Below are positions 1 through 27,830 of a DNA stretch of 64,000 nt, piece by piece. The notes under the pieces were generated by a model. That model worked only from the letters and a program-made list of their open reading frames with translations, was not told the origin of the DNA and searched no databases. Both the position numbers and the translations under genes were made by a program. Source of the stretch: Escherichia coli (GTDB taxonomy: Bacteria > Pseudomonadota > Gammaproteobacteria > Enterobacterales > Enterobacteriaceae); the NCBI RefSeq assembly GCF_044647545.1, contig NZ_CP172818.1, one strand, 5' to 3'. Position 1 is the stretch's first letter, and each line of letters starts with the position of its first letter.

Positions 1-39
1 GGCTTTAGAGGGCACAGAGAATAGCACGGAAAGAGAGCA

Positions 40-55
40 AGGAAAACGGTTGCGT
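40..55 (-). promoter_or_regulatory. PurR operator-like site (read on minus strand: ACGCAACCGTTTTCCT) in the purE promoter region; purE itself lies beyond the window start
   Basis: Close match to the PurR box consensus ACGCAAACGTTTTCNT; position upstream of where purE is expected from gene order. Confidence 0.45.
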
Positions 56-85
56 GGCTGTGAAATCAGCAAAGTTGCGGGTTTT

Positions 86-808
86 TTAAAAAGGAAAATG
101 AATCAGCTCAACGTCATCCGCCGTGACTTTTACCATTGAACCTTCAGTATGCCAGGCACCCAGCACGACGCGGAAAGCAGGTTGCTGATTGGCGATAAGT
201 TCATGTACTGCCGGGCGATGGGTATGCCCGTGAATCAGCCATTGCACCTGATGTTTTTCCATCGCACTGACCACCGCGTTTTGGTTAACGTCCATGATCG
301 CCAGCGATTTACTGCTGTTGGCTTCTTTGCTGTTCGCTCGCATTCGCGCGGCAATGCGTTTGCGCACAAACAACGGCAGGGCGAGGAATAGCGTTTGCAG
401 CCAGGGTTTGTGGACTTTGGCGCGAAAAGCCTGATAACCGGCGTCATCGGTGCACAGCGTGTCGCCATGCATAATCAATACCCGGCGACCATACAGTTCG
501 AGCACCTTTTCTTCCGGCAATAACGTCATGCCGCTTTCACGGGCAAAGCGTTTGCCGAGCAGAAAATCACGGTTGCCATGAATGAAATAACAGGGAACAC
601 CGGAATCGGACACCGCTTTGATCGCTGCCGCCATCTGGCGATGGAGTGGGTTGGGATCGTCGTCGCCAATCCACGCTTCAAACAGATCGCCAAGAATATA
701 CAGCGCGTCGGCCTTGCGGGCTTCCCCCGCTAAAAAACGCAGAAAACCGGCGGTGATCGCCGGTTCTTCCGCGCAGAGATGAAGATCTGCAATAAAGAGT
801 GTCGCCAC
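86..808 (-). CDS. lpxH: UDP-2,3-diacylglucosamine hydrolase LpxH
   Basis: 240-aa ORF with calcineurin-like phosphoesterase motifs (DLHL, GDLFE, GNRD, GHTH); recognised sequence. Confidence 0.92.
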
Positions 809-810
809 GA

Positions 811-1305
811 TTACTCGCTAACGGTCACGCTTTCAATGATAACGTCTTCTTTTGGCACGTCCTGGTGCATACCGCTACGACCGGTTGCCACACCTTTGAT
901 TTTGTCTACCACGTCCATGCCTTCAACCACTTCAGCAAACACGCAGTAACCCCAACCTTGCAGGCTTTCGCCAGAGAAGTTCAGGAAGTCGTTATCAACC
1001 ACGTTGATGAAGAACTGTGCAGTTGCAGAGTGCGGTGCCTGAGTACGGGCCATTGCCAGTGTACCACGGGTATTTTTCAGACCGTTGTTGGCTTCGTTTT
1101 TGATCGGTTCTTTGGTGGCTTTTTGTTTCATGCCCGGTTCAAAACCGCCGCCCTGAATCATAAAGCCGTTGATAACACGGTGGAAAATGGTGTTGTTGTA
1201 AAAACCTTCGCGGCAGTAGTCCAGGAAGTTTTTAACTGTTTCAGGTGCTTTATCGTCAAAAGTTTTGATGACAATATCGCCGTGATTGGTGTGGAAAGTA
1301 ACCAT
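811..1305 (-). CDS. ppiB: peptidyl-prolyl cis-trans isomerase B (cyclophilin)
   Basis: 164-aa ORF, cyclophilin family signature; recognised sequence. Confidence 0.93.
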
Positions 1306-1478
1306 TTTTGCATCCTGTTCCGTTTGATTGGTGCTTCAACCCGGTTCGGGTCATATATAGGGTGGTGTTATAGCATAACCGCACGATCGGATCATCACGC
1401 AATGTATGCTGATTCGCGCGGGAAATATGGGTATTATACGCAACTCAATTACCCACACATGTCTAAACGGAATCTTCG

Positions 1479-2864
1479 ATGCTAAAAATCTTCAATACTC
1501 TGACACGCCAAAAAGAGGAATTTAAGCCTATTCACGCCGGGGAAGTCGGCATGTACGTGTGTGGAATCACCGTTTACGATCTCTGTCATATCGGTCACGG
1601 GCGTACCTTTGTTGCTTTTGACGTGGTTGCGCGCTATCTGCGTTTCCTCGGCTATAAGCTGAAGTATGTGCGCAACATTACCGATATCGACGACAAAATC
1701 ATCAAACGCGCCAATGAAAATGGCGAAAGCTTTGTAGCGCTGGTGGATCGCATGATCGCCGAAATGCACAAAGATTTTGATGCTTTGAATATTCTGCGCC
1801 CGGATATGGAGCCGCGCGCGACGCACCATATCGCAGAAATTATTGAACTCACTGAACAACTGATCGCCAAAGGTCACGCGTATGTGGCGGACAACGGCGA
1901 CGTGATGTTCGACGTCCCGACCGATCCGACCTATGGCGTGCTGTCGCGTCAGGATCTCGACCAGCTGCAGGCAGGCGCGCGCGTTGACGTGGTCGACGAC
2001 AAACGCAACCCGATGGACTTCGTTCTGTGGAAGATGTCGAAAGAGGGCGAACCGAGCTGGCCGTCTCCGTGGGGCGCGGGCCGTCCTGGCTGGCACATTG
2101 AGTGTTCGGCAATGAACTGCAAACAGTTGGGTAACCACTTTGATATCCACGGCGGCGGTTCTGACCTGATGTTCCCGCACCACGAAAACGAAATCGCGCA
2201 GTCCACCTGTGCCCATGATGGCCAGTATGTGAACTACTGGATGCACTCCGGAATGGTGATGGTTGACCGCGAGAAGATGTCCAAATCGCTGGGTAACTTC
2301 TTTACCGTGCGCGATGTGCTGAAATACTACGACGCGGAAACCGTGCGTTACTTCCTGATGTCGGGCCACTATCGCAGCCAGCTGAACTACAGCGAAGAGA
2401 ACCTGAAGCAGGCGCGTGCGGCGCTGGAGCGTCTCTACACTGCGCTGCGCGGCACAGATAAAACTGTTGCGCCTGCCGGTGGCGAAGCGTTTGAAGCGCG
2501 CTTTATTGAAGCGATGGACGACGATTTCAACACCCCGGAAGCCTATTCCGTGCTGTTTGATATGGCCCGTGAAGTGAACCGTCTGAAAGCAGAAGATATG
2601 GCAGCGGCGAATGCAATGGCATCTCACCTGCGTAAACTTTCCGCCGTATTGGGCCTGCTGGAGCAAGAACCAGAAGCGTTCCTGCAAAGCGGCGCGCAGG
2701 CAGACGACAGCGAAGTGGCTGAGATTGAAGCGTTAATTCAACAGCGTCTGGATGCCCGTAAAGCGAAAGACTGGGCGGCGGCAGATGCGGCGCGTGATCG
2801 TCTTAACGAGATGGGGATCGTGCTGGAAGATGGCCCGCAAGGGACCACCTGGCGTCGTAAGTAA
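1479..2864 (+). CDS. cysS: cysteine--tRNA ligase
   Basis: 461-aa ORF with class I aaRS HIGH and KMSKS motifs. Confidence 0.95.
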
Positions 2865-2875
2865 TTGCGCTATTG

Positions 2876-2899
2876 CCGGATGCGAGTTTTCGCATCCGG
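2876..2899. terminator. 9-bp stem hairpin (CCGGATGCG / CGCATCCGG) between convergent cysS and ybcI; possible bidirectional terminator or REP-like element
   Basis: Perfect inverted repeat seen in sequence; no strong T-run, so terminator role is tentative. Confidence 0.4.
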
Positions 2900-3421
2900 T
2901 TATCGCCTGCGCCACCACAACATTCCCATCAGTAGCATCCCCGGCAACCACACCCACATTAATTCAGAAATAATCACCTGATGCCCGTACGGCGTGGTGT
3001 AACGAGACAATGCAAACGGCGCGACTTTAATCACCTGCCAGGGAGCGAAAAAGCGTTCATCTGACCACGGCCACAGCCAGCCAACCCCTTTACCGCCAGT
3101 GGTTACCGAATCCAGCAAGCTGTGCGATAGCAACGAGACGGTTAAAAACAGCCAGCAGCGAATCAGCCCAGCCCTGAACCATCGACGTCCAATCAGCACA
3201 CATAACAGCGGGACAACAAACGCAAACACCAACGAATGGGTAAACCCGCGATGACCAAAAACATTGCCGTAAGCAACGCCAAATTTAAATGACAATACGT
3301 CGGCATCGGGCAGCATCGCCAGGACGATTCCGGCAAATAACAGGCGCGGAGGGATGACTTTTGAACCCAACCCTAAACCAATGCAAAGGGGAACGGCGGC
3401 GTGCGTAATAACGGTTGGCAT
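2900..3421 (-). CDS. ybcI: inner-membrane metal-dependent hydrolase family protein YbcI
   Basis: 173-aa hydrophobic ORF; recognised sequence and gene order. Confidence 0.8.
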   Translation of the reverse strand: MPTVITHAAVPLCIGLGLGSKVIPPRLLFAGIVLAMLPDADVLSFKFGVAYGNVFGHRGFTHSLVFAFVVPLLCVLIGRRWFRAGLIRCWLFLTVSLLSHSLLDSVTTGGKGVGWLWPWSDERFFAPWQVIKVAPFALSRYTTPYGHQVIISELMWVWLPGMLLMGMLWWRRR

Positions 3422-3489
3422 GATGATCGCTTCGGCAAAATATCGATGCTATCAGCATGGATGAACGAGGCGTAGGGGGCAACAGTCTG

Positions 3490-3520
3490 AAAAGAGAACC
3501 GGCCTGTTGATACAGGCCGG
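3490..3520 (-). terminator. rho-independent terminator downstream of ybcJ-folD (minus strand)
   Basis: 8-bp GC-rich stem (CCGGCCTG / CAGGCCGG) followed on the minus strand by TTCTCTTTT. Confidence 0.5.
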
Positions 3521-3528
3521 GAAAGGGA

Positions 3529-3741
3529 TCAGGCAACAACCTGTACGCTGTGACCTGCAAAACTTACTGTCTGCCCGGCGACAATTTTGCAGCGTTTGCG
3601 CGTTTCAACCGCACCGTCGACTTTCACCTGGCCTTCGGCAATCGCGATTTTCGCCTGCGCGCCGCTTTCGCTCCAGCCTTCCAGTTTCAGCAAGTCGCAC
3701 AGCTCAACGTGCGGATGTTTACCTAAAGAAAATGTCGCCAT
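3529..3741 (-). CDS. ybcJ: S4-like RNA-binding protein YbcJ
   Basis: 70-aa ORF starting MATFSLGKHPHVEL; the ORF track extends it 18 codons upstream into folD, which is unlikely to be real. Confidence 0.8.
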   Translation of the reverse strand: MATFSLGKHPHVELCDLLKLEGWSESGAQAKIAIAEGQVKVDGAVETRKRCKIVAGQTVSFAGHSVQVVA

Positions 3742-3742
3742 G

Positions 3743-4609
3743 TTACTCACCCTGTGGATCATGATATTCAACGCACGCCTGTAGCGTGTTTTCAATCAGC
3801 GTGGCAACCGTCATCGGGCCAACGCCGCCGGGAACAGGCGTAATGTATGAGGCGCGTTTAGCCGCGTCTTCAAACACGACGTCGCCCACAACTTTGCCAT
3901 TTTCCAGACGGTTGATGCCGACATCAATCACAATTGCGCCTTCTTTGATCCAGTCACCAGGAATAAAGCCCGGCTTGCCGACGGCAACGATCAGTAGATC
4001 GGCATTTTCTACGTGGTGACGCAGATTTTTAGTGAAACGGTGAGTCACGGTGGTGGTGCAACCTGCCAGTAGCAGTTCCATGCTCATCGGGCGGCCAACG
4101 ATATTCGATGCGCCAATCACCACGGCGTTGAGGCCGAAGGTATCAATATTGTAACGCTCAAGCAGCGTGACAATACCGCGCGGGGTGCAGGGACGCAGAC
4201 GCGGCGCGCGCTGGCACAGGCGACCGACGTTATAAGGATGGAAACCGTCTACGTCTTTGTCCGGATGAATACGTTCCAGCACTTTGACGTTATCAATACC
4301 CGCCGGTAACGGCAGTTGAACCAGAATGCCATCGATGGTGTTGTCGGCATTCAGCGCATCGATAAGCTCCAACAGCTCCGCTTCGCTGGTGGTTTCCGGG
4401 AGGTCATAAGAGCGGGAGACGAACCCGACTTCTTCACAAGCCTTGCGTTTGCTTGCGACATAAATTTGCGATGCAGGGTTACTACCCACCAGCACAACGG
4501 CCAGTCCTGGTGCCCGCAGTCCGGCTGCAATACGCGCCTGAACTTTTTGAGCAACTTCAGAGCGCACCTGCTGCGCAATCGTTTTACCGTCAATAATCTT
4601 TGCTGCCAT
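3743..4609 (-). CDS. folD: bifunctional methylenetetrahydrofolate dehydrogenase / methenyl-THF cyclohydrolase
   Basis: 288-aa ORF; recognised sequence. Confidence 0.94.
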
Positions 4610-5080
4610 CAGAGAGAGGATTCCATCTGTTACGTAGGTCGAAGGGGATGCGCCTATTTTGTCAGAAGCGGGGCGCGCTGTCAGGTTTCGTTTCAGATTT
4701 ATCGCGTGAAGCGACCTCTTGCGAAGGTGAGGCGCACCGTCGCTGAGATTGAAAGCTTCATTTTTCGTCCATGATGACGTTGTAAATCTGGAACTGATTT
4801 ATTTCCTTGTCTAAGGATTAAGATAATTTAAGAAATACCTGACAATATAAAAAGAATTTTCAGCCTGGTAATTTACCGCTTCAGGTCTATATTTGTGTTG
4901 AATATATTTTGCGCGGAAATATTCATCTAACGGGGCTCTCTATTTTTTAGAATAGAGTGCATATTTTCAATTAAGACATTCTTAGAGGATAAAAAGGAAT
5001 TTTACTACTATCAGTGTCTTAAATAAAGTAATCGGTTATATACGGATGTGGAGTCGATAAATGAGATTGAAGGAATATAT

Positions 5081-5623
5081 ATGAAATTAAGATTTATTTC
5101 GTCTGCGCTGGCCGCCGCACTATTCGCCGCTACGGGTAGTTATGCTGCCGTTGTAGATGGCGGTACAATTCACTTTGAAGGCGAACTGGTGAATGCTGCC
5201 TGTTCAGTGAATACTGACTCGGCAGACCAGGTTGTCACACTCGGTCAATATCGTACCGATATTTTCAATGCTGTTGGTAATACCTCTGCATTAATTCCAT
5301 TCACTATACAGTTGAACGACTGCGATCCTGTCGTTGCCGCTAATGCTGCCGTTGCATTTTCTGGTCAGGCGGATGCAATCAATGATAATTTATTGGCCAT
5401 TGCATCCAGTACTAATACAACAACAGCAACGGGTGTCGGTATTGAAATACTTGATAATACATCCGCAATTCTCAAACCTGATGGGAATAGCTTCTCAACC
5501 AACCAGAACTTGATCCCCGGGACCAACGTTCTTCATTTTTCTGCACGTTATAAAGGTACCGGTACAAGTGCATCAGCAGGGCAAGCAAATGCTGACGCGA
5601 CTTTTATTATGAGATACGAATAA
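5081..5623 (+). CDS. sfmA: type 1-like fimbrial major subunit SfmA
   Basis: 180 aa from MKLRFISS with signal peptide and fimbrial subunit C-terminus; ORF track begins 11 codons upstream. Confidence 0.85.
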
Positions 5624-5842
5624 TCAAAACCACGTTGTTTTGAATTATATATCACGTCTTATAACAAAGTAATGTACCGGTTGTCTGAAGCGGTATGGTG
5701 GCAATGTAAATCGAAATCACGCTCACTTTGTATCATGCCGCTTTATTAAATGAAAAGGGAATGATGTGTTGTAAGAAACCAAAGCAATCATTTCTTTATA
5801 CTCCTTATTTTTGCCGTCAGGAATACACAAGGCGTATTAACT

Positions 5843-6535
5843 ATGATGACTAAAATAAAGTTATTGATGCTCATTATATTTTATTTAATCATTTCGGTCA
5901 GCGCCCATGCTGCCGGAGGGATCGCATTAGGTGCCACGCGTATTATTTATCCCGCTGATGCTAAACAGACTGCGGTATGGATTAGAAATAGCCATACCAA
6001 TGAGCGCTTTCTGGTCAATTCGTGGATTGAAAACAGCAGCGGTGTAAAAGAAAAGTCATTCATCATTACACCGCCACTGTTTGTTAGTGAACCCAAAAGC
6101 GAAAATACTTTGCGTATTATTTACACCGGTCCACCGCTGGCGGCAGATCGTGAGTCTCTGTTCTGGATGAATGTTAAGACGATCCCTTCGGTAGATAAAA
6201 ATGCATTGAACGGCAGGAATGTTTTGCAACTGGCGATTTTATCACGCATGAAATTATTTCTCCGTCCAATTCAATTACAAGAATTACCCGCAGAAGCGCC
6301 GGACACACTCAAGTTTTCGCGATCCGGTAACTATATCAATGTTCATAATCCATCACCTTTTTATGTCACCCTGGTTAACTTGCAAGTGGGCAGCCAAAAA
6401 CTGGGGAATGCTATGGCTGCACCCAGAGTTAATTCACAAATTCCCTTACCCTCAGGAGTGCAGGGAAAGCTGAAATTTCAGACCGTTAATGATTATGGTT
6501 CAGTAACCCCGGTCAGAGAAGTGAACTTAAACTAA
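5843..6535 (+). CDS. sfmC: periplasmic fimbrial chaperone SfmC (PapD-like)
   Basis: 230-aa ORF with signal peptide; chaperone-usher operon context. Confidence 0.88.
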
Positions 6536-6565
6536 CCGAATCATCTGACAATATCAGAGCTAATT

Positions 6566-9175
6566 ATGAAAATACCCACTACTACGGATATTCCGCAGAG
6601 GTATACCTGGTGTCTGGCCGGAATTTGTTATTCATCTCTTGCCATTTTACCCTCCTTTTTAAGCTATGCGGAAAGTTATTTCAACCCGGCATTTTTATTA
6701 GAGAATGGCACATCCGTTGCTGATTTATCGCACTTTGAGAGAGGTAATCATCAACCTGCGGGCGTGTATCGGGTGGATCTCTGGCGTAATGATGAGTTCA
6801 TTGGTTCACAGGATATCGTATTTGAATCGACGACAGTAAATACAGGTGATAAATCAGGTGGGTTAATGCCTTGTTTTAACCAGGCACTCCTTGAACGAAT
6901 TGGCCTTAATAGCAGTGCATTCCCCGAGTTAGCCCAGCAGCAAAATAATAAATGCATCAATTTACTGAAAGCTGTACCTGATGCCACAATTAACTTTGAT
7001 TTTGCAGCGATGCGCCTGAACATCACTATTCCTCAGATAGCGTTGTTGAGTAGCGCTCACGGTTATATTCCGCCTGAAGAGTGGGATGAAGGTATTCCTG
7101 CTTTACTCCTGAATTATAATTTCACCGGTAACAGAGGTAATGGTAACGATAGCTATTTTTTTAGTGAACTCAGCGGGATTAATATTGGCCCGTGGCGTTT
7201 ACGCAACAATGGTTCCTGGAATTATTTTCGCGGAAATGGATATCATTCAGAACAGTGGAATAATATTGGCACCTGGGTACAGCGCGCCATTATTCCGCTG
7301 AAAAGTGAACTGGTAATGGGAGACGGTAATACAGGGAGTGATATTTTCGATGGCGTTGGATTTCGAGGTGTACGGCTTTATTCTTCCGATAATATGTATC
7401 CTGATAGCCAGCAGGGATTTGCTCCAACGGTACGTGGGATTGCCCGTACGGCGGCCCAGCTAACGATTCGGCAAAATGGTTTTATTATCTATCAAAGCTA
7501 TGTTTCCCCCGGCGCTTTTGAAATTACAGATTTGCACCCGACATCTTCAAATGGCGATCTGGACGTCACCATCGACGAGCGTGATGGTAATCAGCAGAAT
7601 TACACGATTCCGTATTCAACAGTGCCAATTTTACAACGCGAAGGGCGTTTCAAATTTGACCTGACGGCGGGCGATTTTCGTAGCGGTAATAGTCAGCAAT
7701 CGTCGCCTTTCTTTTTTCAGGGCACGGCACTCGGCGGTTTACCACAGGAATTTACTGCCTACGGCGGGACGCAATTATCTGCAAATTACACCGCCTTTTT
7801 GTTAGGGCTGGGGCGCAACCTCGGGAACTGGGGCGCAGTGTCGCTGGATGTAACGCATGCGCGCAGTCAGTTAGCCGACGACAGTCGTCATGAGGGGGAT
7901 TCCATTCGCTTCCTCTATGCGAAATCAATGAACACTTTCGGCACCAATTTTCAGTTAATGGGTTACCGCTATTCGACACAAGGTTTTTATACTCTTGATG
8001 ATGTTGCGTATCGTCGAATGGAGGGGTACGAATATGATTACGATTATGACGGTGAGCATCGCGATGAACCGATAATCGTGAATTACCACAATTTACGCTT
8101 TAGTCGTAAAGACCGTTTGCAGTTAAATATTTCACAATCACTTAATGACTTTGGCTCGCTTTATATTTCTGGTACCCATCAAAAATACTGGAATACTTCG
8201 GATTCAGATACCTGGTATCAGGTGGGGTATACCAGCAGCTGGGTTGGCATCAGTTATTCACTCTCATTTTCGTGGAATGAATCTGTAGGGATCCCCGATA
8301 ACGAACGTATTGTCGGACTTAATGTTTCAGTGCCTTTCAATGTTCTGACCAAACGTCGCTACACCCGGGAAAATGCGCTCGACCGCGCTTATGCCTCCTT
8401 TAACGCCAACCGTAACAGCAACGGGCAAAATAGCTGGCTGGCAGGCGTTGGTGGGACCTTACTGGAAGGCCACAACCTGAGTTATCACGTAAGCCAGGGC
8501 GATACCTCGAATAATGGGTATACGGGCAGCGCCACGGCAAACTGGCAGGCCGCTTACGGTACGCTGGGGGTCGGGTATAACTACGACCGCGATCAACATG
8601 ACGTTAACTGGCAGCTGTCTGGCGGTGTGGTCGGGCATGAAAATGGTATAACGCTGAGCCAGCCTTTAGGGGATACCAATGTTTTGATTAAAGCGCCAGG
8701 CGCAGGCGGTGTACGCATTGAAAATCAAACTGGAATTTTAACCGACTGGCGCGGCTATGCGGTGATGCCGTATGCCACGGTTTATCGGTATAACCGTATC
8801 GCGCTTGATACCAATACGATGGGGAATTCCATCGATGTTGAAAAAAATATTAGCAGCGTTGTGCCGACGCAAGGCGCGTTGGTTCGTGCCAATTTTGATA
8901 CCCGCATAGGCGTGCGGGCGCTCATTACCGTTACCCAGGGCGGAAAACCGGTGCCGTTTGGATCACTGGTACGGGAAAACAGTACCGGAATAACCAGTAT
9001 GGTGGGTGATGACGGGCAAGTTTATTTAAGCGGTGCGCCATTGTCTGGTGAATTACTGGTTCAGTGGGGAGACGGCGCGAACTCACGCTGCATAGCGCAC
9101 TATGTATTGCCGAAGCAAAGCTTACAGCAAGCCGTCACTGTTATTTCGGCAGTTTGCACACATCCTGGCTCATAA
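6566..9175 (+). CDS. sfmD: outer-membrane fimbrial usher SfmD
   Basis: 869-aa ORF; usher family size and operon position. Confidence 0.9.
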
Positions 9176-9187
9176 AGGAAATTATCA

Positions 9188-10195
9188 ATGAAGATAATCT
9201 GCAGATTATTATTGGCGATGGCATGTTTGTGGTTAACAAACATATCCTGGGCTACTGTTTGTGCAAATAGTACTGGCGTAGCAGAAGATGAACACTATGA
9301 TCTCTCAAATGTCTTTAATAGCACCAATAACCAGCCAGGGCAGATTGTTGTTTTACCGGAAAAATCCGGCTGGGTAGGTGTATCAGCAATTTGTCCACCC
9401 GGCACGCTGGTGAATTATACATACCGTAGTTATGTCACCAACTTTATTGTTCAGGAAACTATCGATAATTATAAATATATGCAATTAAATGATTATCTAT
9501 TAGGTGCGATGAGTCTGGTTGATAGCGTGATGGATATTCAATTCCCTCCGCAAAATTATATTCGTATGGGAACAGATCCTAACGTTTCGCAAAACCTTCC
9601 GTTCGGGGTGATGGATTCTCGTTTGATATTTCGTTTAAAGGTTATTCGTCCCTTTATTAACATGGTGGAGATCCCCAGACAGGTGATGTTTACCGTGTAT
9701 GTGACATCAACGCCTAACGATCCGTTGGTTACACCTGTTTATACCATTAGTTTTGGTGGCCGGGTTGAAGTACCGCAAAACTGCGAATTAAATGCCGGGC
9801 AAATTGTTGAATTTGATTTTGGTGATATCGGCGCATCGTTATTTAGTGCGGCAGGGCCGGGGAATCGACCAGCTGGTGTCATGCCGCAAACCAAGAGCAT
9901 TGCGATCAAATGTACGAATGTTGCTGCGCAGGCTTATTTAACAATGCGTCTGGAAGCCAGTGCCGTTTCTGGTCAGGCGATGGTGTCGGACAATCAGGAT
10001 TTAGGTTTTATTGTGGCCGATCAGAACGATACGCCGATCACGCCTAACGATCTCAATAGCGTTATTCCTTTCCGTCTGGATGCAGCTGCGGCAGCCAATG
10101 TCACACTTCGCGCCTGGCCTATCAGTATTACCGGTCAAAAACCGACCGAAGGGCCGTTTAGCGCGCTGGGGTATTTACGCGTCGATTATCAATGA
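9188..10195 (+). CDS. sfmH: fimbrial adhesin-like protein SfmH
   Basis: 335-aa ORF with signal peptide; exact start codon uncertain. Confidence 0.8.
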   Translation: MKIICRLLLAMACLWLTNISWATVCANSTGVAEDEHYDLSNVFNSTNNQPGQIVVLPEKSGWVGVSAICPPGTLVNYTYRSYVTNFIVQETIDNYKYMQLNDYLLGAMSLVDSVMDIQFPPQNYIRMGTDPNVSQNLPFGVMDSRLIFRLKVIRPFINMVEIPRQVMFTVYVTSTPNDPLVTPVYTISFGGRVEVPQNCELNAGQIVEFDFGDIGASLFSAAGPGNRPAGVMPQTKSIAIKCTNVAAQAYLTMRLEASAVSGQAMVSDNQDLGFIVADQNDTPITPNDLNSVIPFRLDAAAAANVTLRAWPISITGQKPTEGPFSALGYLRVDYQ

Positions 10196-10205
10196 GGTAC
10201 GGAGA

Positions 10206-10721
10206 ATGAGAAGAGTACTCTTTAGCTGTTTCTGCGGGCTACTGTGGAGTTCCAGTGGATGGGCAGTTGACCCTTTAGGAACGATTAATATCAATTTGCA
10301 CGGTAACGTTGTTGATTTCTCCTGTACCGTAAACACAGCGGATAAGGATAAGACGGTAGATTTAGGCAGATGGCCTACGACACAATTACTGAGCGCTGGC
10401 GATACCACGGCACTCGTCCCTTTTAGCCTGCGGCTGGAGGGATGTCCTCCGGGTTCAGTTGCGATTTTATTTACGGGAACGCCGGCATCTGATGCCAACC
10501 TGCTGGCTCTGGATGATCCCGCAATGGCACAAACCGTCGCCATCGAATTACGTAATAGCGATCGCTCCCGGCTCGCACTGGGGGAGGCGAGCTCGACTGA
10601 GGAAGTTGATGCAAATGGCAATGTCACACTAAACTTTTTTGCCAATTATCGAGCGTTAGCCAGCGGTGTTCAGCCTGGTGTGGCGAAAGCGGATGCGATA
10701 TTTATGATCAATTATAATTAA
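10206..10721 (+). CDS. sfmF: fimbrial minor subunit SfmF
   Basis: 171 aa from MRRVLFSCF; the longer ORF-track N-terminus overlaps sfmH and is rejected. Confidence 0.8.
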   Translation: MRRVLFSCFCGLLWSSSGWAVDPLGTININLHGNVVDFSCTVNTADKDKTVDLGRWPTTQLLSAGDTTALVPFSLRLEGCPPGSVAILFTGTPASDANLLALDDPAMAQTVAIELRNSDRSRLALGEASSTEEVDANGNVTLNFFANYRALASGVQPGVAKADAIFMINYN

Positions 10722-10723
10722 TA

Positions 10724-11356
10724 TTATATTAATTCATATAATTTGGCGTAGTCGATAAGCTCTACAATTGAATGCAAACCTAGCTTGCCATAAATATTAG
10801 ATTTATGTGCACTAACTGTTTTATTGCTAAGTAATAACTTATCGGCAATTTCTTTATTAGATAATCCGCTAACCAGATAACGTAATATGGTTACTTCACG
10901 ATTAGATAGCACAGTGACCGTTGAACTATTCGTACTACATTTATTGCTTTTTATATAGTTGAGCGTTTCGCTGGGAAAAAAAGTGTATCCGGAGAGAATC
11001 ATCTGAACGGCATGAAAAATATCATTCTGATCATTGCATTTACTGACAAAACCGTTAGCACCAGCTTGTATCGCTCTGCCAGCATAAAAGCATTCTGATT
11101 TCGATGATAAAAATAATACTTTCACTGTACTCTGAATTTGTTTGATCCTTTTTAGGAAGGTAAAACCGTCTGTACCGGGCAAGTCTATATCCATAATGAT
11201 TAAATCAACAGGACGGGTTCGGAGATAATCGATGGTTATGCGGTAATCATCCGTTTTCAGGACAATCTGCAATTCACTGTTTTTTTGCAACAGAACTTCA
11301 ATAGACATTCTGATGATAGGATGAGTATCCATAATGATCACCGACGTTGGTTTCAT
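10724..11356 (-). CDS. fimZ: LuxR/FixJ-type response regulator FimZ
   Basis: 210 aa from MKPTSVIIMD; receiver domain plus C-terminal helix-turn-helix. Confidence 0.88.
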   Translation of the reverse strand: MKPTSVIIMDTHPIIRMSIEVLLQKNSELQIVLKTDDYRITIDYLRTRPVDLIIMDIDLPGTDGFTFLKRIKQIQSTVKVLFLSSKSECFYAGRAIQAGANGFVSKCNDQNDIFHAVQMILSGYTFFPSETLNYIKSNKCSTNSSTVTVLSNREVTILRYLVSGLSNKEIADKLLLSNKTVSAHKSNIYGKLGLHSIVELIDYAKLYELI

Positions 11357-11538
11357 AGTTACCAGTCTCATTGGATCGGACAATTTTCCGTTAGGGCGGT
11401 AAATTGTACTTGATACATGAAAATACGGGTTTTCCTGATTCAGACGCGCAGCGGTGTGCGTTTGTTTGCCGCTATAACGAAATAAATCAGAAAATCAGAC
11501 GCGGTCGTTCACTTGTTCAGCAACCAGATCAAAAGCCA

Positions 11539-11566
11539 TTGACTCAGCAAGGGTTGACCGTATAAT
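11539..11566 (+). promoter_or_regulatory. candidate sigma-70 promoter of argU (-35 TTGACT, 16-bp spacer, -10 TATAAT)
   Basis: Near-consensus hexamers about 30 bp upstream of the tRNA 5' end. Confidence 0.5.
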
Positions 11567-11597
11567 TCACGCGATTACACCGCATTGCGGTATCAAC

Positions 11598-11674
11598 GCG
11601 CCCTTAGCTCAGTTGGATAGAGCAACGACCTTCTAAGTCGTGGGCCGCAGGTTCGAATCCTGCAGGGCGCGCCA
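11598..11674 (+). tRNA. argU: tRNA-Arg (anticodon UCU), ending in CCA
   Basis: 77-nt sequence GCGCCCTTAGCTCAGTTGGATAGAGCAACGACCTTCTAAGTCGTGGGCCGCAGGTTCGAATCCTGCAGGGCGCGCCA; cloverleaf-compatible; recognised argU. Confidence 0.95.
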
Positions 11675-11689
11675 TTACAATTCAATCAG

Positions 11690-12853
11690 TTACGCCTTCT
11701 TTATATCCTCCATAATTCCAGAGTGGGACATATTTGGGACATTATCACCAAAAATGTCGTCTATTTTCCTCGCATGCTCTGTCAAATGATTAGGCGCAAG
11801 GTGAGCATACCTACGAACCATTTCTATGGACTCCCATCCGCCCATTTCCTGAAGCACTGATAATGGGACGCCTGACTGAATCAGCCAGCTTGCCCAGGTG
11901 TGTCTGAGGTCATGGAAACGGAAATCTTCAATTCCTGCACGACGACAAGCTGATAGCCATGATGTCTTGCTGTCGATGCGCATCTTCCTGACCGCAGGCG
12001 TTGATGTTCCATCTGCTCGCTTAGCCGCCTTGGTATGTACAAACACCCATTTGTGATGCTTGCCTATTTGATCACGCAACACTTTACAGGCGGTATCGTT
12101 CAGCGCCACACCAATGGCGCGGTTTGATTTGCTCTCTTCTGGATTCACCCAGGCAACTCGTCGCTGCATGTCGATTTGTTGCCATTCCAGATTTATGATG
12201 TTCGACTTTCTCAGACCAGTTGCCAGCGCAAACTTGACGACAGATTTCAGTGGTTCGGGGCACTCATCAATAAGGCGTTTTGCTTCCTCCTTTTCCAGCC
12301 ATCTGACTCGCTTGTTTCTGACCGCTGGTATCTTGATGACAGGCGCTTTTTCCAGCCACTTCCAGTCGCGTTCTGCAGCACGGAGAATGGCCTTTATCAT
12401 GGCAAGATGCTTTGCCTTTGTCTGAGTTGATACTGGCTTTGGTTCATAAACAGGCAGTTCTTTACCTTTCCTGATGGCGGCCTGAACTTTCTGTTTCCAT
12501 ATTTCTTTCGTCTTTCTGTTATGCATTCTGCTTACAGCAGAGTAAATCTTTGCCTCCGAGATATCTTTAAGCCTTATACCCTCAAAATGTTCAAGCCAGA
12601 ACTCAATCCGGCTTTTATCTGAATCGAGAGATTTTTTATCAGCTTTTTCCTCAAGCCATCTTAGGCAGGCCTCTTCAAAAGTGACATCAGGTAAATCCCC
12701 TAGCTTTTCTACTCGCCAGAGTTCTGCTTTTCGCTTGTCGTGCAACTCCTGAGCTTGCCGCTTGTCCTTTGTGCCAAGAGATTCCTTAATTCGTTTCCCG
12801 CCCGGGAGCGAATACGAGGCATACCATATTTCATTTCTGCGGAAGAGTGACAT
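11690..12853 (-). CDS. intD: prophage tyrosine integrase
   Basis: 387-aa ORF 15 bp downstream of the tRNA; C-terminal R..HxxR..Y catalytic region ([13 protein letters not shown]). Confidence 0.9.
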
Positions 12854-12972
12854 TTTCTTTCCTCTGTTATGCCATCACCCGCGCTCACCTGGACAGTATG
12901 CAGCGGAGACTGAAGCGCCGCAATGCAGGCTTGCCGTGTTGTGAGGTACCCGGATATTATCGTGAGGATGCG

Positions 12973-13311
12973 TCATCGCCATTGCTCCCCAAATACAAAA
13001 CCAATTTCAGCCAGTGCCTCGTCCATTTTTTCGATGAACTCCGGCACCATCTCGTCAAAACTCGCCATGTACTTTTCATCCCGCTCAACCACGACATAAT
13101 GCAGTCCTTCACGCTTCATACGCGGGTCATAGTTGGCAAAGTACCAGGCATCTTTTCGTGTCACCCACATGCTGTACTGCACCTGGGCCATGTAAGCCGA
13201 CTTTATGGCCTCGAAACCACCGAGCCGGAACTTCATGAAATCCCGGGAGGTACGAGTATTGCCGGAAGCGCGGGCTGTATCCGGATGCAGAGTCTTATCC
13301 GTGGAAATCAA
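12973..13311 (-). pseudogene. exoD: lambda exonuclease (Exo) C-terminal fragment
   Basis: 112-aa ORF whose sequence ([50 protein letters not shown]...GFVFGEQWR) corresponds to the C-terminal part of lambda Exo only. Confidence 0.7.
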
Positions 13312-13349
13312 ACGCGCACTACTGGCTGGTTACCAACCTGTATCAGAAC

Positions 13350-13562
13350 ATGCGGGCCAATGCGTTGACTGACGCGGAATTACGGCGCAAGGCTGCCGAT
13401 GAACTGTCCTGTATGACCGCACGAATTAACCGTGGTGAGGCTATACCTGAACCAGTAAAACAACTTCCTGTCATGGGCGGTAGACCTCTAAATCGTGCAC
13501 AGGCTCTGGCGAAGATCGCAGAAATCAAAGCTAAGTTTGGGCTGAAAGGAGCAAGGGTATGA
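13350..13562 (+). pseudogene. peaD: lambda replication protein P C-terminal fragment
   Basis: 70-aa ORF ending ...AEIKAKFGLKGARV, matching the end of lambda P; no N-terminal part present. Confidence 0.6.
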
Positions 13563-13716
13563 CGGGCAAAGAGGCAATTATTCATTACCTGGGGACTCAT
13601 AAGAAATTCTGTGCGCAGGACGTTGCCGCGGTAACAGGCGCAACGGTAATCTGATCTTACCCAGCAATAGTGGACACGCGGCTAAGTGAGTAAACTCTCA
13701 GTCAGAGGTGACTCAC

Positions 13717-14016
13717 ATGACAAAAACAGTATCAACCAGTAAAAAACCCCGTAAACAGCATTCGCCTGAATTTCGCAGTGAAGCCCTGAAGCTTGCTGAA
13801 CGCATCGGTGTTACTGCCGCAGCCCGTGAACTCAGCCTGTATGAATCACAACTCTACAACTGGCGCAGTAAACAGCAAAATCAGCAGACGTCTTCTGAAC
13901 GTGAACTGGAGATGTCTACCGAGATTGCACGTCTCAAACGCCAGCTGGCAGAACGGGATGAAGAGCTGGCTATCCTCCAAAAGGCCGCGACATACTTCGC
14001 GAAGCGCCTGAAATGA
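13717..14016 (+). CDS. insE: IS3 OrfA (transposase N-terminal, helix-turn-helix)
   Basis: 99 aa from [15 protein letters not shown]; recognised IS3 OrfA. Confidence 0.88.
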
Positions 14017-14879
14017 AGTATGTCTTTATTGAAAAACATCAGGCTGAGTTCAGCATCAAAGCAATGTGCCGCGTGCTCCGGGTGGCCCGCAGCGGCTGGT
14101 ATACGTGGTGTCAGCGGCGGACAAGGATAAGCACGCGTCAGCAGTTCCGCCAACACTGCGACAGCGTTGTCCTCGCGGCTTTTACCCGGTCAAAACAGCG
14201 TTACGGTGCCCCACGCCTGACGGATGAACTGCGTGCTCAGGGTTACCCCTTTAACGTAAAAACCGTGGCGGCAAGCCTGCGCCGTCAGGGACTGAGGGCA
14301 AAGGCCTCCCGGAAGTTCAGCCCGGTCAGCTACCGCGCACACGGCCTGCCTGTGTCAGAAAATCTGTTGGAGCAGGATTTTTACGCCAGTGGCCCGAACC
14401 AGAAGTGGGCAGGAGACATCACGTACTTACGTACAGATGAAGGCTGGCTGTATCTGGCAGTGGTCATTGACCTGTGGTCACGTGCCGTTATTGGCTGGTC
14501 AATGTCGCCACGCATGACGGCGCAACTGGCCTGCGATGCCCTGCAGATGGCGCTGTGGCGGCGTAAGAGGCCCCGGAACGTTATCGTTCACACGGACCGT
14601 GGAGGCCAGTACTGTTCAGCAGATTATCAGGCGCAACTGAAGCGGCATAATCTGCGTGGAAGTATGAGCGCAAAAGGTTGCTGCTACGATAATGCCTGCG
14701 TGGAAAGCTTCTTTCATTCGCTGAAAGTGGAATGTATCCATGGAGAACACTTTATCAGCCGGGAAATAATGCGGGCAACGGTGTTTAATTATATCGAATG
14801 TGATTACAATCGGTGGCGGCGGCACAGTTGGTGTGGCGGCCTCAGTCCGGAACAATTTGAAAACAAGAACCTCGCTTAG
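14013..14879 (+). CDS. insF: IS3 OrfB transposase (DDE catalytic domain; normally made as an OrfAB fusion by -1 frameshift)
   Basis: 288-aa ORF overlapping insE; recognised IS3 OrfB. Confidence 0.88.
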
Positions 14880-15189
14880 GCCTGTGTCCATATTACGTGG
14901 GTAGGATCAACCAGCATAAATCAGGCTGCGGCTAAAATGGCACGGGCAGGTCTTCTGGCTATCGAAGGTAAGGTCTGGCGAACGGTGTATTACCGGTTTG
15001 CTACCAGAGAAGAACGGGAAGGAAAGGTGAGCACGAATCTGATTTTTAAGGAGTGTCGCCAGAGTGCCGCGATGAAACGGGTATTGAGGGTATATAAAAG
15101 AACATCAATGGGTACACAATGATGAAACAGGTGAGTTGAGTTCAAACTGTAGTACAATTCTCTCCAGTTTGAACAGGAAAGAATATTCT

Positions 15190-15522: not shown

Positions 15523-15553
15523 AAATAATTTGTTTCTAAACGACTAAAATATG

Positions 15554-15586
15554 GAGGCTCTTATATTTATATGAGCCTCGTTTTAT
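15554..15586 (+). terminator. candidate rho-independent terminator after emrE
   Basis: GAGGCTC / GAGCCTC stem with AT-rich loop followed by GTTTTATGCTTTTT. Confidence 0.45.
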
Positions 15587-15778
15587 GCTTTTTGTTAATG
15601 TCTTTATTTTTTTATGTATTCTTTTGTGCTTTCAAGATTATGGCGTAAGAAAATTGCAATACGATTATTGTTGTATATTCAAGATAATGTGACCTTAATT
15701 GTCTTTTTAAATAAAAATTAAACAAAAATTATATCCCACCACTAAGGTTTATAAAAGCATACGTTAGCAGGTGTCACC

Positions 15779-17305
15779 ATGAAAAAAGCCATAGCATATA
15801 TGCGATTTTCATCACCAGGTCAGATGTCTGGCGACTCATTAAACCGACAGAGAAGACTTATTGCTGAATGGTTAAAGGTAAATAGTGATTATTATCTTGA
15901 TACCATAACATATGAAGATTTAGGATTAAGTGCATTCAAAGGAAAGCATGCACAATCAGGAGCTTTTTCGGAATTTTTAGATGCTATAGAGCATGGTTAT
16001 ATATTGCCAGGAACTACATTGTTAGTTGAAAGTCTGGACAGACTTTCAAGAGAAAAAGTCGGTGAAGCGATTGAACGTCTGAAATTGATTTTGAATCACG
16101 GTATTGATGTTATAACTCTTTGCGACAATACAGTCTATAATATTGACTCTTTGAATGAGCCATATTCATTAATAAAAGCCATACTTATAGCACAAAGGGC
16201 AAATGAAGAAAGCGAGATAAAGTCAAGTCGGGTTAAATTATCATGGAAGAAAAAACGGCAGGATGCACTGGAATCAGGTACGATTATGACGGCGTCTTGT
16301 CCGAGATGGCTCTCCTTAGATGACAAAAGAACGGCTTTTGTTCCAGACCCCGACAGGGTGAAAACTATTGAGCTAATTTTTAAACTCAGGATGGAAAGGC
16401 GCTCATTGAATGCAATAGCCAAGTATTTAAATGATCATGCTGTAAAGAATTTCTCAGGAAAAGAAAGTGCATGGGGACCTTCTGTAATTGAAAAATTATT
16501 AGCGAATAAAGCTCTGATAGGTATATGCGTACCTTCATATCGTGCAAGAGGTAAAGGAATAAGTGAAATCGCTGGCTATTATCCCAGAGTCATATCAGAT
16601 GATTTGTTTTACGCTGTACAGGAAATTCGGTTGGCACCTTTTGGTATTAGCAATAGTAGCAAAAATCCTATGTTGATAAATCTACTTCGAACAGTTATGA
16701 AGTGCGAGGCTTGTGGTAATACCATGATTGTTCATGCGGTATCTGGAAGTTTGCATGGCTATTATGTTTGTCCGATGAGAAGACTGCATCGATGTGACAG
16801 GCCATCAATAAAGAGAGATTTGGTTGATTATAATATCATTAATGAGTTGCTTTTTAATTGTAGTAAAATCCAACCAGTTGAAAACAAGAAAGATGCTAAT
16901 GAAACTTTAGAGTTGAAAATTATTGAGCTCCAGATGAAAATTAATAATTTAATTGCTGCATTATCTGTTGCGCCTGAAGTTACCGCTATAGCAGAAAAAA
17001 TCAGAGTATTAGATAAGGAATTACGAAGGGCTTCTGTATCATTAAAAACTTTGAAGAGTAAAGCGGTGAGTTCACTTGGTGATTTTCATGCTATTGACTT
17101 AACCAGTAAAAATGGGCGAGAGCTATGTCGTACACTTGCCTATAAAACATTCGAAAAAATCATAATCAATACAGATAATAAAACCTGTGATATCTATTTT
17201 ATGAATGGCATTGTTTTTAAACACTATCCTTTAATGAAAACAATATCCGCCCAGCAGGCGATAAGTACTCTCAAATATATGGTTGATGGTGAGGTTTATT
17301 TTTGA
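15779..17305 (+). CDS. ybcK: large serine recombinase family protein
   Basis: 508-aa ORF; N-terminal resolvase-like catalytic motif (AYMRFSSPGQ), central recombinase domain, Cys-rich zinc ribbon (CEACGN...CPMRRLHRCD), C-terminal coiled-coil-like region. Confidence 0.85.
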   Translation: MKKAIAYMRFSSPGQMSGDSLNRQRRLIAEWLKVNSDYYLDTITYEDLGLSAFKGKHAQSGAFSEFLDAIEHGYILPGTTLLVESLDRLSREKVGEAIERLKLILNHGIDVITLCDNTVYNIDSLNEPYSLIKAILIAQRANEESEIKSSRVKLSWKKKRQDALESGTIMTASCPRWLSLDDKRTAFVPDPDRVKTIELIFKLRMERRSLNAIAKYLNDHAVKNFSGKESAWGPSVIEKLLANKALIGICVPSYRARGKGISEIAGYYPRVISDDLFYAVQEIRLAPFGISNSSKNPMLINLLRTVMKCEACGNTMIVHAVSGSLHGYYVCPMRRLHRCDRPSIKRDLVDYNIINELLFNCSKIQPVENKKDANETLELKIIELQMKINNLIAALSVAPEVTAIAEKIRVLDKELRRASVSLKTLKSKAVSSLGDFHAIDLTSKNGRELCRTLAYKTFEKIIINTDNKTCDIYFMNGIVFKHYPLMKTISAQQAISTLKYMVDGEVYF

Positions 17306-17499
17306 GTAATAATCTTTTTTACGTCGTGCTATAGTAAGAAAGTGCAAGACAGAATTAATTATCTTTGACGAAACTTAATGGGTAATTACTTTGTTTGCTC
17401 CCACAAGCGAGTTTTGTACGGCTGTATTGGGGTAGTAAATGAGCTATACAATCTTAATCATTTGTTAGGTGAGAACTCTTGGTCGCAGATTCAAATACT

Positions 17500-17549
17500 G
17501 AAAATACGTGACAAATTATTATGAGCAAAATGGTGTATGTCACGTATTT
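17500..17549. repeat. 13-bp perfect inverted repeat pair (AAAATACGTGACA ... TGTCACGTATTTT) separated by 24 bp
   Basis: Seen directly in the ybcK-ybcL intergenic region. Confidence 0.6.
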
Positions 17550-17762
17550 TGAATGGTAGGTTAAAAAATAACACCGACTTTCGTAGGTATTACTAATAAT
17601 AAAGCAGAGTTTTTAGATAGTATCAATGTGCTTTGTGTATATTGTGGCAAATAATTGGGTTGCTGAGGGGTAGAATGTGATTGCTTTTGCATGAACACTT
17701 TATGCATAATGAGATAAAGGAATATCAAATAAAGAACGATAGGTCATAACAAAGAGGTTTTT

Positions 17763-18312
17763 ATGAAAACACTTATCGTTTCAACTGTATTGGCATTCAT
17801 AACATTTTCTGCGCAGGCTGCAGCATTTCAGGTCACTAGTAATGAAATAAAAACAGGAGAGCAACTTACAACGTCTCATGTCTTTCTCGATTTGGGTGTG
17901 AAGGTGGTAATACATCGCCCTCATTAACCTGGTCTGGTGTTCCTGAAGGTACCAAAAGCTTTGCCGTAACTGTATATGATCCAGATGCACCTACAGGCAG
18001 TGGTTGGTGGCATTGGACTGTTGTTAATATTCCAGCAACAGTAACATATTTTCCGTTGATGCAGGGAGACGTGATGGAACAAAACTGCCGACTGGTGCTG
18101 TTCAAGGCCGAAATGATTTTGGCTATGCTGGGTTTGGTGGCGCATGTCCTCCTAAAGGAGATAAACCACATCATTACCAGTTTAAAGTATGGGCTCTAAA
18201 AACTGAAAAGATTCCTGTAGATTCTAACTCCAGCGGAGCGTTAGTTGGTTATATGCTTAATGCTAATAAAATCGCAACCGCTGAGATAACACCAGTTTAT
18301 GAGATAAAGTAG
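17763..18312 (+). pseudogene. ybcL: periplasmic PEBP/UPF0098 family protein with two frame breaks in this assembly
   Basis: Signal peptide MKTLIVSTVLAFITFSAQA; the protein is recovered across three frames with shifts near 17884 (T-run) and 18054 (C-run); corrected length would be 183 aa. Confidence 0.7.
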
Positions 18313-18321
18313 GGTGAGAGT

Positions 18322-19119
18322 ATGCTGGCAAGAGGTAAGACTAACTTAAAGATCGAAGAAATACGGATGCATAAACATCATGAGATTCATAGGGTTAAGC
18401 CTCTTATGCCAGCTTTGTGTCGTATCCGTCAGGGAAAGAAAGTTATCAATTGGGAGACGCATACTTTAACTGTTGATAATAATCAAATAATATTATTTCC
18501 TTGTGGTTATGAATTTTATATTGAGAATTATCCTGAAGCAGGGCTTTATCTTGCAGAAATGCTTTACTTACCCATTGATTTAATTGAGAGTTTCCAAAAA
18601 CTTTATACGGTAACTGATCAAATACGTAACAAAACAAGTTTCTTTTTACCTCAGAATCCTGAGTTAATATATTGTTGGGAGCAACTAAAAACATCTGTTT
18701 CCCGAGGCTTCTCAACTAAAATTCAGGAGCACTTAGCAATGGGCGTTCTACTTTCGTTAGGAGTGAATCATGTTAATCATTTACTTTTATCATATAGTAA
18801 ACAATCATTGATAAGTCGTTGTTATAACCTGCTGCTATCCGAACCCGGCACAAAATGGACAGCAAACAAGGTTGCTCGATATCTCTACATTTCTGTTTCT
18901 ACATTACATCGCCGTCTAGCAAGCGAGGGGGTAAGTTTCCAAAGTATACTGGACGATGTGAGGTTAAATAATGCGTTGTCTGCTATACAAACGACGGTAA
19001 AACCTATAAGCGAGATTGCCAGAGAAAATGGTTATAAGTGTCCTTCTCGTTTTACTGAAAGATTTCATAATCGTTTTAATATAACACCAAGAGAGATAAG
19101 AAAAGCTTCCAGAGAGTAA
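18322..19119 (+). CDS. ybcM: AraC-family transcriptional regulator
   Basis: 265-aa ORF with C-terminal AraC-type helix-turn-helix. Confidence 0.85.
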
Positions 19120-19235
19120 AAGTGTTTTAAGAAGGAGCAATTCTATCGATTTTGATTTGCGATAATCAACTCGCCATAATCATGTCATCGGAGCCTGAAC
19201 AACTCCGGTGACTTCTGCGCTAAACGGGGACGTTT

Positions 19236-27095: not shown

Positions 27096-27107
27096 GGGCG
27101 GCGACCT
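27096..27107 (+). other. lambda-type cosN cohesive-end sequence GGGCGGCGACCT
   Basis: Exact lambda cohesive-end 12-mer preceded by GATCCGACAGGTTACG; CGTTTCC/GGAAACG repeats (terminase small-subunit binding elements) lie between it and nohD. Confidence 0.8.
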
Positions 27108-27284
27108 CGCGGGTTTTCGCTATTTATGAAAAATTTCCGGTTTAAGGCGTTTCCGTTCTTCTTCGTCATAACTTAATGTTTTTATTTAAAATACCCTCTG
27201 AAAAGAAAGGAAACGACAGGTGCTGAAAGCGAGCTTTTTGGCCTCTGTCGTTTCCTTTCTCTGTTTTTGTCCGTGGAATGAACA

Positions 27285-27830
27285 ATGGAAGTCAACAAAA
27301 AGCAGCTGGCTGACATTTTCGGTGCGAGTATCCGTACCATTCAGAACTGGCAGGAACAGGGAATGCCCGTTCTGCGAGGCGGTGGCAAGGGTAATGAGGT
27401 GCTTTATGACTCTGCCGCCGTCATAAAATGGTATGCCGAAAGGGATGCTGAAATTGAGAACGAAAAGCTGCGCCGGGAGGTTGAAGAACTGCGGCAGGCC
27501 AGCGAGGCAGATCTCCAGCCAGGAACTATTGAGTACGAACGCCATCGACTTACGCGTGCGCAGGCCGACGCACAGGAACTGAAGAATGCCAGAGACTCCG
27601 CTGAAGTGGTGGAAACCGCATTCTGTACTTTCGTGTTGTCGCGGATCGCAGGTGAAATTGCCAGTATTCTCGACGGGCTCCCCCTGTCGGTGCAGCGGCG
27701 TTTTCCGGAACTGGAAAACCGACATGTTGATTTCCTGAAACGGGATATTATCAAAGCCATGAACAAAGCAGCCGCGCTGGATGAACTGATACCGGGGTTG
27801 CTGAGTGAATATATCGAACAGTCAGGTTAA
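27285..27830 (+). CDS. nohD: terminase small subunit (lambda Nu1 homologue)
   Basis: 181-aa [49 protein letters not shown]...; recognised Nu1 sequence. Confidence 0.9.

Follow-up and report, generated by a model that had tools for sequence, protein, structure and literature searches.

An inverted repeat in the ybcK–ybcL spacer of a DLP12-type prophage

The DNA analysed here (referred to as the window) is a 64-kb stretch of Escherichia coli that carries a DLP12-type lambdoid prophage with the gene order of K-12, namely intD, an IS3 copy within ren, emrE, ylcJ, ybcK, ybcL, ybcM, ybcN, ninE, ybcO, rusA, ylcG and quuD. The genes surrounding the element of interest are all transcribed rightward and form a lambdoid nin-type region. 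On its left lies ybcK (15779–17305, + strand), which encodes a large serine recombinase of 508 aa with Resolvase, Recombinase and Zn ribbon domains (phrog_95, integrase), while the ATG of ybcL is located at 17763.

Direct reading of the sequence of this spacer confirmed a perfect inverted repeat, which starts 196 nt past the ybcK stop codon. Its left arm (AAAATACGTGACA, 17501–17513) and its right arm (TGTCACGTATTTT, 17538–17550), the exact reverse complement of the left one, enclose a 24-bp spacer (AATTATTATGAGCAAAATGGTGTA, 17514–17537), none of these parts being assigned to a strand. The initial annotation of this DNA, which described a 13-bp perfect repeat around a 24-bp AT-rich spacer between ybcK and ybcL, was right in its geometry (13 of 13 arm positions complementary; spacer G+C 7/24) and misplaced by one base, since the 50-bp element runs from 17501 to 17550 instead of from 17500 to 17549. 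The symmetry ends at the arms, both flanking bases being G (17500 and 17551), and it does not extend inwards either: the spacer has no internal dyad symmetry, and its two 12-bp halves agree at no more positions (3 of 12) than expected by chance. The exact centre (17525|17526) is G|C, a palindromic dinucleotide.

In dinucleotide-preserving shuffles of the 64-kb window, perfect inverted repeats with arms of 13 bp or more (loop of up to 60) numbered 0.04 per shuffled window, with 4 of 100 shuffles containing any such repeat, compared to three in the real window. The other two are a lambda-type cosB R2/R1 pair (27204–27260) and an AT-rich hairpin (63012–63048). Additional copies and half-sites, for which the initial annotation had advised a search, were looked for: none of 5,426 complete E. 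coli genomes had a second copy, even a partial one (BLAST, E-value limit of 10), and the six half-sites with up to two mismatches in the window (1.8 expected), two of which are the arms of the repeat itself, represent no real excess.

Distribution of the repeat and of the segment that carries it

The 268-bp stretch around the repeat (17344–17611) was present in 674 of the 5,426 complete E. coli genomes with at least 98.9% identity, always on the chromosome and once per genome; the single plasmid match to the carrying segment proved to be a mislabelled chromosome. The 60 bp immediately around the repeat (17496–17555) were identical in 671 of these 674 copies. In IMG/VR, 37 contigs carried the repeat, intact and in the same context throughout, and it was also found in three phages deposited as complete genomes (PhiR34_1, PhiR68_2 and PhiR70_1). 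A pattern scan for the two arms at 22–26 bp spacing across 100,044 species-representative genomes recovered this context from E. coli only, apart from one 255-bp low-coverage contaminant contig; most of the remaining matches came from a palindromic repeat in Opitutae that is unrelated, and a few were spread over other lineages. Searches for diverged relatives of the carrying segment, in phage and plasmid records and in E. coli at blastn sensitivity, returned the same locus only.

The possibility of a MITE, an IS remnant or a REP-like dispersed repeat was rejected, as each carrying genome has exactly one copy. Because the 674 genomic and 37 viral copies, and indeed the whole cassette (17344–19119, 99–100% identical among carriers), are essentially identical, neither conservation nor covariation can be analysed, and no such signal singles out the repeat. 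Since the cassette is as invariant as the repeat, the invariance of the latter is uninformative on selection. As far as these comparisons go, the repeat thus appears as a single-copy, nearly invariant element, restricted to E. coli, in a segment of ~236 bp.

The repeat marks one junction between exchangeable units

The limits of this segment followed from natural variants of the locus, which were found with a 6.6-kb query and whose junctions were mapped by pairwise BLAST. In the arrangement shared by the window and K-12 (type B), the order is emrE-ylcJ-ybcK-leader-ybcL-ybcM. In a second arrangement (type C; loci L005, L006 and L007, including O157:H7), an emrE-ylcJ-ybcK unit that is 96–99.8% identical is followed by different cargo, in the form of a P22AR-C fragment with a hypothetical gene or of an alpha/beta hydrolase gene, or by none; compared to the window, sharp homology stops at 17343, is residual up to ~17375 and resumes at 19150/51. 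In a third (type A; L008 and L086, beside fliE, and L120, in a phage contig), emrE is followed by ybcL and ybcM without ylcJ-ybcK, with junctions at 15530|17612 and a ybcLM that is ~89% identical. A 2,081-bp block (15531–17611) consequently separates the loci with ybcK from the emrE-ybcLM loci without it, and the variant junctions together place the repeat within ~236 bp (17376–17611; not assigned to a strand, 99–100% identical wherever found) that are present only in type B.

This orphan leader was found only at junctions of the ybcK unit with a particular ybcLM allele; ybcK loci that have other cargo lack it, as do ybcLM loci without ybcK. With 1,528 copies of ybcK in 1,423 of the 5,426 E. 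coli genomes, and 3,369 places in E. coli genomes that hold the ybcL promoter with ybcLM, compared to 674 for the repeat, the latter is missing from 56% of the ybcK copies and from ~80% of the ybcLM copies, in which both genes are still annotated as intact. In these genomes, the repeat is tied to neither ybcK nor ybcLM, and it is a lineage-restricted junction element of one prophage variant.

The variant map is a useful by-product in its own right. Alignment of the variants showed that a 3′ flank of ybcK (17306–17375, + strand) is common to all ybcK variants, and that homology between them stops at its end. Within this flank, the box ATTAAyTATCTTGAACGAA (~17354–17375), ~50–70 bp past the ybcK stop codon, was retained in all of them (window and L005–L007) even though its surroundings had diverged or been replaced. 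When the junctions 15530/31, 17343/44, 17611/12 and 19150/51 were compared with each other and with the repeat, only AT-rich matches of 6–10 bp emerged, and nothing att-like.

The window joins a ybcK allele of the L005 type (99.75% identical up to 17343) to a K-12-type cassette (99–100%, 17344–19119). This ybcK allele matches that of strain RS571 (99.75%) and the ybcLM cassette is of the K-12 type, which makes the window prophage a mosaic. Over positions 1–14000, the window is ~98.2% identical to K-12 despite sharing its gene order including IS3, which interrupts ren exactly as in K-12 (13650–14908). For the spacer, no complete E. coli genome was closer to the window than K-12.

The repeat as a possible weak terminator or insulator hairpin

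Tentatively, and as a possibility rather than a probability, we read the repeat as a weak, atypical and bidirectional terminator or insulator hairpin in the orphan junction leader. This role was rated the likeliest because of the hairpin fold with its A4 and U4 flanks, and partly because the alternatives in which the repeat is a protein site were tested and failed. In this scenario, the short leader (~17376–17611) lies between the unit of ybcK and the ybcLM unit of DLP12-type lambdoid prophages, which is self-contained and autoregulated by YbcM, and any action of the repeat would most likely be exerted at the RNA level. Rightward transcripts from emrE-ylcJ-ybcK, or leftward ones, would form the 13-bp stem flanked by A4 and U4, and the resulting hairpin might function as a weak bidirectional intrinsic terminator, or as a 3′-end stabiliser, that shields ybcLM from upstream read-through.

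The 50-mer is predicted to fold with −17.0 kcal/mol on the + strand and −14.0 kcal/mol on the – strand, and none of 200 shuffles folded as well (z = −4.9 and −5.8, respectively). Each arm ends in four A/T, so that a transcript in either direction would read as stem, loop, stem and UUUU. From the ybcK stop codon to the ybcL promoter, the repeat is the sole hairpin candidate on the + strand. At the equivalent position, L007 has a canonical terminator-like hairpin (3220–3241), and L006 has only a weak 7-bp hairpin (2997–3021) followed by a T run. The window moreover contains the above-mentioned AT-rich 13-bp hairpin directly past a stop codon (63012–63048), and the nin region of lambda carries the terminators tR2–tR4.

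Like the intrinsic bidirectional terminators of E. coli and of lambdoid nin regions, the repeat would form a hairpin with a 5′ A run and a 3′ U run that is usable on both strands, it sits between two co-directional units in a phage early-right region, and its folding energy is in the usual range. Unlike these terminators, which have loops of 3–8 nt, it has a loop of 24 nt and an AU-rich stem (G-C in only 4 of 13 pairs), and lies 196 nt from the stop codon. A weak inner helix of 6 bp (three G-U and three A-U pairs) is predicted within this loop for the + strand alone, leaving an apical loop of 7 nt. In addition, the UUUU is the end of the arm rather than a free tail, there being no U tail beyond these four and the next bases being GAAU (+) or CAGU (–). 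A consensus terminator scan of the region made no call at the repeat, and other ybcK variants and ybcLM islands do without it. We regard the long-loop terminator that the initial annotation had listed among its options as a plausible candidate, though at the atypical end of its class.

Published transcript maps contributed little. The Term-seq tables consulted from Adams et al. 2021 list no RNA 3′ end at K-12 positions 570,5xx–570,7xx. Since Rho and H-NS silence the locus at the ybcK 5′ end and expression of ybcK is very low, the missing 3′ end is uninformative. The + strand entries of Cappable-seq contain no start between 568538 and 570094 (U00096.2 numbering), indicating that the repeat harbours no + strand promoter, and the SMRT-Cappable-seq supplements hold nothing for this locus. 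The repeat was also considered as a known structured RNA and rejected, Rfam yielding no relevant match on either strand of 17000–18000 (E ≤ 1).

Morons, after Hendrix, are the promoter-gene-terminator units of lambdoid prophages. Like the boundary elements of such morons, the repeat lies exactly where accessory units that are exchanged independently (those of ybcK and of ybcLM, and the alternative cargo) meet; unlike them, it is not consistently attached to either unit and occurs in one junction variant only. The repeat is an uncharacterised member of a familiar class of elements, and is of practical value only as a possible weak terminator or insulator located ahead of ybcLM.

A possible neutral relic of the junction

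Ranking close behind the terminator or insulator hairpin, and rather unlikely when taken by itself, is an origin as a neutral relic. The repeat would then be a functionless by-product of how the junction arose (by template switching or a quasi-palindrome event, for instance, or through filler DNA of unsampled origin), and would be perfect only because the segment is young. The carrying segment indeed has no relatives outside this one locus, and among the 100,044 species representatives the pattern occurs in E. coli only (plus the 255-bp contaminant contig). The near-identity of its 674 copies (at least 98.9%), which the flanking cassette shares, would reflect recency instead of selection, and the neighbouring genes are commonly kept without the repeat, as the proportions of ybcK and ybcLM copies lacking it illustrate. 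A 48-aa ORF that overlaps its left arm (17378–17524) belongs to no family; considered as a gene, this ORF was rejected (no Pfam or PHROG family, no tblastn relatives, and only two cluster members). Three observations argue against a relic. Chance alone would seldom produce a 13/13 repeat (0.04 per shuffled window), both of the remaining repeats of this class in the window look functional, and the arms finish in runs of A and T just as those of a bidirectional terminator would.

An unlikely site for another protein or minus-strand promoter

It is unlikely, and clearly more so than a relic, that another DNA-binding protein recognises the repeat or that it is a regulated promoter on the – strand. 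In the promoter version, the right arm overlaps GTGACA, which resembles a –35 element, and the left arm overlaps the predicted start, so that a protein occupying the two arms could control an RNA that is antisense to the 3′ end of ybcK. A sigma-70 promoter-like match (17515–17543, – strand) does lie inside the repeat, reading GTGACA, 17 bp and AATAAT and agreeing with the consensus at 10 of 12 positions, and a terminator-like hairpin on the same strand follows ~250 nt downstream (17261–17247). However, promoter-like matches are no more frequent in this region than in shuffles (3 compared to 3.8 expected), and the Rfam search gave no match on either strand. The predicted – strand promoter and this hairpin, which is located inside the 3′ end of ybcK, would delimit a possible antisense RNA to that end.

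That protein sites with such a geometry exist is illustrated by the lambda cosB R2/R1 repeats for binding of Nu1 (27204–27260), which in this same prophage have perfect 16-bp arms ~25 bp apart. They differ from the repeat in sequence, adjoin the gene of their binding protein and are conserved across lambdoid phages, whereas the repeat has no known binder, candidate protein or relatives. Furthermore, its arm centres are 37 bp (~3.5 helical turns) apart, which puts the arms on opposite faces of the helix and makes binding by a simple dimer awkward.

YbcK and the recombination-site reading

The option favoured by the initial annotation, a recombination site for YbcK, is very improbable on our assessment. 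The repeat would here be an attP-like site of the adjacent recombinase, a dimer of which would bind both arms and cut at the centre. The attP site of phiC31 shows strong outer symmetry around a less symmetric core. In this respect the geometric point behind the proposal holds good, since a 50-bp site with outer symmetry resembles some attP sites of large serine recombinases: like those of phiC31, Bxb1, A118 and TP901-1, the repeat measures ~50 bp and has outer inverted repeats beside a Resolvase/Recombinase/Zn-ribbon gene. It lies 196 bp downstream of a recombinase gene that appears catalytically intact, with the catalytic serine motif RFSSPGQ as well as DRLSR, and it falls within the 2,081-bp block (15531–17611) that marks the loci with ybcK.

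Its occurrence does not follow the recombinase, though. Only 674 of the 1,528 ybcK copies are accompanied by the repeat, and intact ybcK alleles that are 96–99.8% identical (L005–L007) continue into unrelated DNA from ~17376 without it. Five orthologous recombinase loci (42–61% identity; Atlantibacter, Yersinia, Erwinia, Pantoea and a metagenomic phage) have neither a long-spacer dyad in or near the 3′ flank nor the arm sequence. The inversion or deletion variants that the initial annotation had expected to be informative were also looked for, and no endpoint of an inversion, deletion or cargo swap fell inside the repeat in the 674 genomes and 37 viral contigs: the module junctions (17343/17376 and 17611) are at least 61 bp off, and the nearest rearrangement junction, an IS1-linked one in a viral contig (L040), is at 17465, 36 bp upstream. 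With a single copy per genome in the BLAST search of 5,426 genomes, and no partner pair of arms at 4–44 bp spacings in the window, a second site for recombination did not appear either, although a diverged attB located elsewhere in a genome would escape these searches.

The core of the repeat was compared with attP sites as well. The outer 13 bp of the repeat are perfectly symmetric (13/13), while the inner 12 + 12 bp match at only 3 of 12 positions and are thus asymmetric at chance level around a palindromic GC centre. In the natural sites of large serine recombinases such as phiC31 and Bxb1, a non-palindromic central dinucleotide sets polarity, which for such an enzyme would be lost with GC at the centre. 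Unlike known attP sites, the repeat was thus found with neither recombinase co-occurrence nor recombination products nor a partner site, and it is most likely not a YbcK recombination site. Had it been one, an uncharacterised recombinase of E. coli K-12 would have gained its first substrate, and there would have been a handle on the movement of accessory cassettes in lambdoid prophages.

Even less probable is a broader version, in which the whole ylcJ-ybcK-leader block (15531–17611) would be a captured integration module of recombinase plus attP, with the repeat as its intact attP. DLP12-type phages with the block would then gain a second, YbcK-driven route of integration, or, alternatively, the downstream cargo cassette would be exchanged with an unsampled partner site.

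As a complete large serine recombinase, YbcK must nonetheless have a substrate somewhere, and its real substrate is the question that the analysis of the repeat has exposed. Its orthologues (42–61%) occupy accessory spots of prophages, being located in the nin region (L013 and L079) or after a tail-fibre assembly gene (L009, L011 and L078). At the rseC|lepA prophage site of Erwinia rhapontici, a locus with the recombinase (L078) and one without it (L082) differ by a 2,281-bp block (L078:5815–8095), the ends of which have no symmetry and no similarity to the ends of the E. coli block. In both E. coli and Erwinia rhapontici, a YbcK-family gene thus forms a presence/absence block of ~2.1–2.3 kb in otherwise collinear prophage regions, comprising the gene with ~200–250 bp upstream and 300–550 bp downstream, and no terminal repeats or att-like symmetry could be recognised in either species.

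The 5′ part of a DUF1367 nin gene is present twice in one metagenomic lambdoid contig (L013:7623–7851 and 10609–10831; 229 bp, 82.5% identical), the first copy being truncated at codon 60, and the DNA between the copies holds a YbcK orthologue (60%) alongside genes for KGG and DinI. This arrangement suggests that the module may have been imported along with a fragment of its previous insertion site.

PADLOC defence-system models matched none of YbcK, YbcL, YbcM and YlcJ, and YbcK had no match among PDB sequences. The papers on ybcK consulted here describe a Rho terminator located at the 5′ end of the gene, or treat small proteins, sigma-54, PhoB and Hfq/polyP binding, and none of the further titles and abstracts surveyed points to recombination. 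None of the papers found quotes the sequence of the repeat.

The YbcM site lies downstream of the repeat

The weakest reading, hardly credible and also taken from the initial annotation, makes the repeat the operator through which the AraC-type regulator YbcM would control ybcLM; the repeat does lie near this operon, which YbcM autoregulates (PMC8464067), but the reading is contradicted by the strongest YbcM site in the ChIP-exo data of Gao et al. 2021 (PMC8464067; 570015–570048, signal-to-noise 357, assigned to ybcL), which spans –101 to –68 relative to the ybcL ATG in NC_000913.2 numbering compared to –266 to –217 for the repeat. On locus L001, the footprint (GTACAATTGTGATTGC..., L001:6350–6383) accordingly starts 116 bp downstream of the repeat (L001:6185–6234). 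If version 3 numbering were used, the footprint would fall inside ybcK, still without overlapping the repeat. It moreover belongs to DNA that is common to the type A ybcLM islands, which lack the repeat.

Mapped onto the window via L001, the ybcL promoter region and the equivalent of the YbcM footprint cover 17644–17698 (+ strand), with the –35 hexamer GTGGCA at 17644–17649, 94 bp downstream of the repeat, and the footprint at ~17670–17698. Genomic SELEX (PMC3946193) had proposed GTGGCA-17-TACAAT as the ybcL promoter, the –10 element of which is overlapped by the YbcM footprint. In the window, the spacer of this promoter is ~4 bp longer (GTGGCA, 21 bp and TAGAAT, compared to 17 bp in K-12), 6 bp are missing from the footprint region, and ybcL itself (17763–18313) is frameshifted relative to K-12 by single-base deletions at ~17882 and ~18051. 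Judged from the assembled sequence, ybcLM may be decaying in this strain, or these differences may be homopolymer errors of the assembly.

Other inverted repeats

The Opitutae repeat recovered by the arm-pattern scan is a dispersed, multi-copy palindrome (TGTCACGTA(A/T)TACGTGACA) in MAGs of Opitutae and other Verrucomicrobiota (L051–L077), often occurring as pairs ~25 bp apart. It shares only a 9-mer with the arms of the E. coli repeat, to which it is unrelated.

The longest perfect inverted repeat of the window is the 16-bp one at 27204–27260 (AGAAAGGAAACGACAG, 25-bp spacer). It is located just upstream of a Nu1-like ORF of 181 aa starting with MEVNKKQL (context 27100–27830), and the region reads like a lambda cos/cosB, with R2/R1 binding sites for the terminase subunit Nu1. 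The repeat at 63012–63048 consists of perfect, AT-rich 13-bp arms (ATAAACCCATAAT) around an 11-nt loop, followed by a T-rich tail. Located 14 nt past the stop codon of a 1,339-aa ORF (58979–62998), it is probably an intrinsic terminator.
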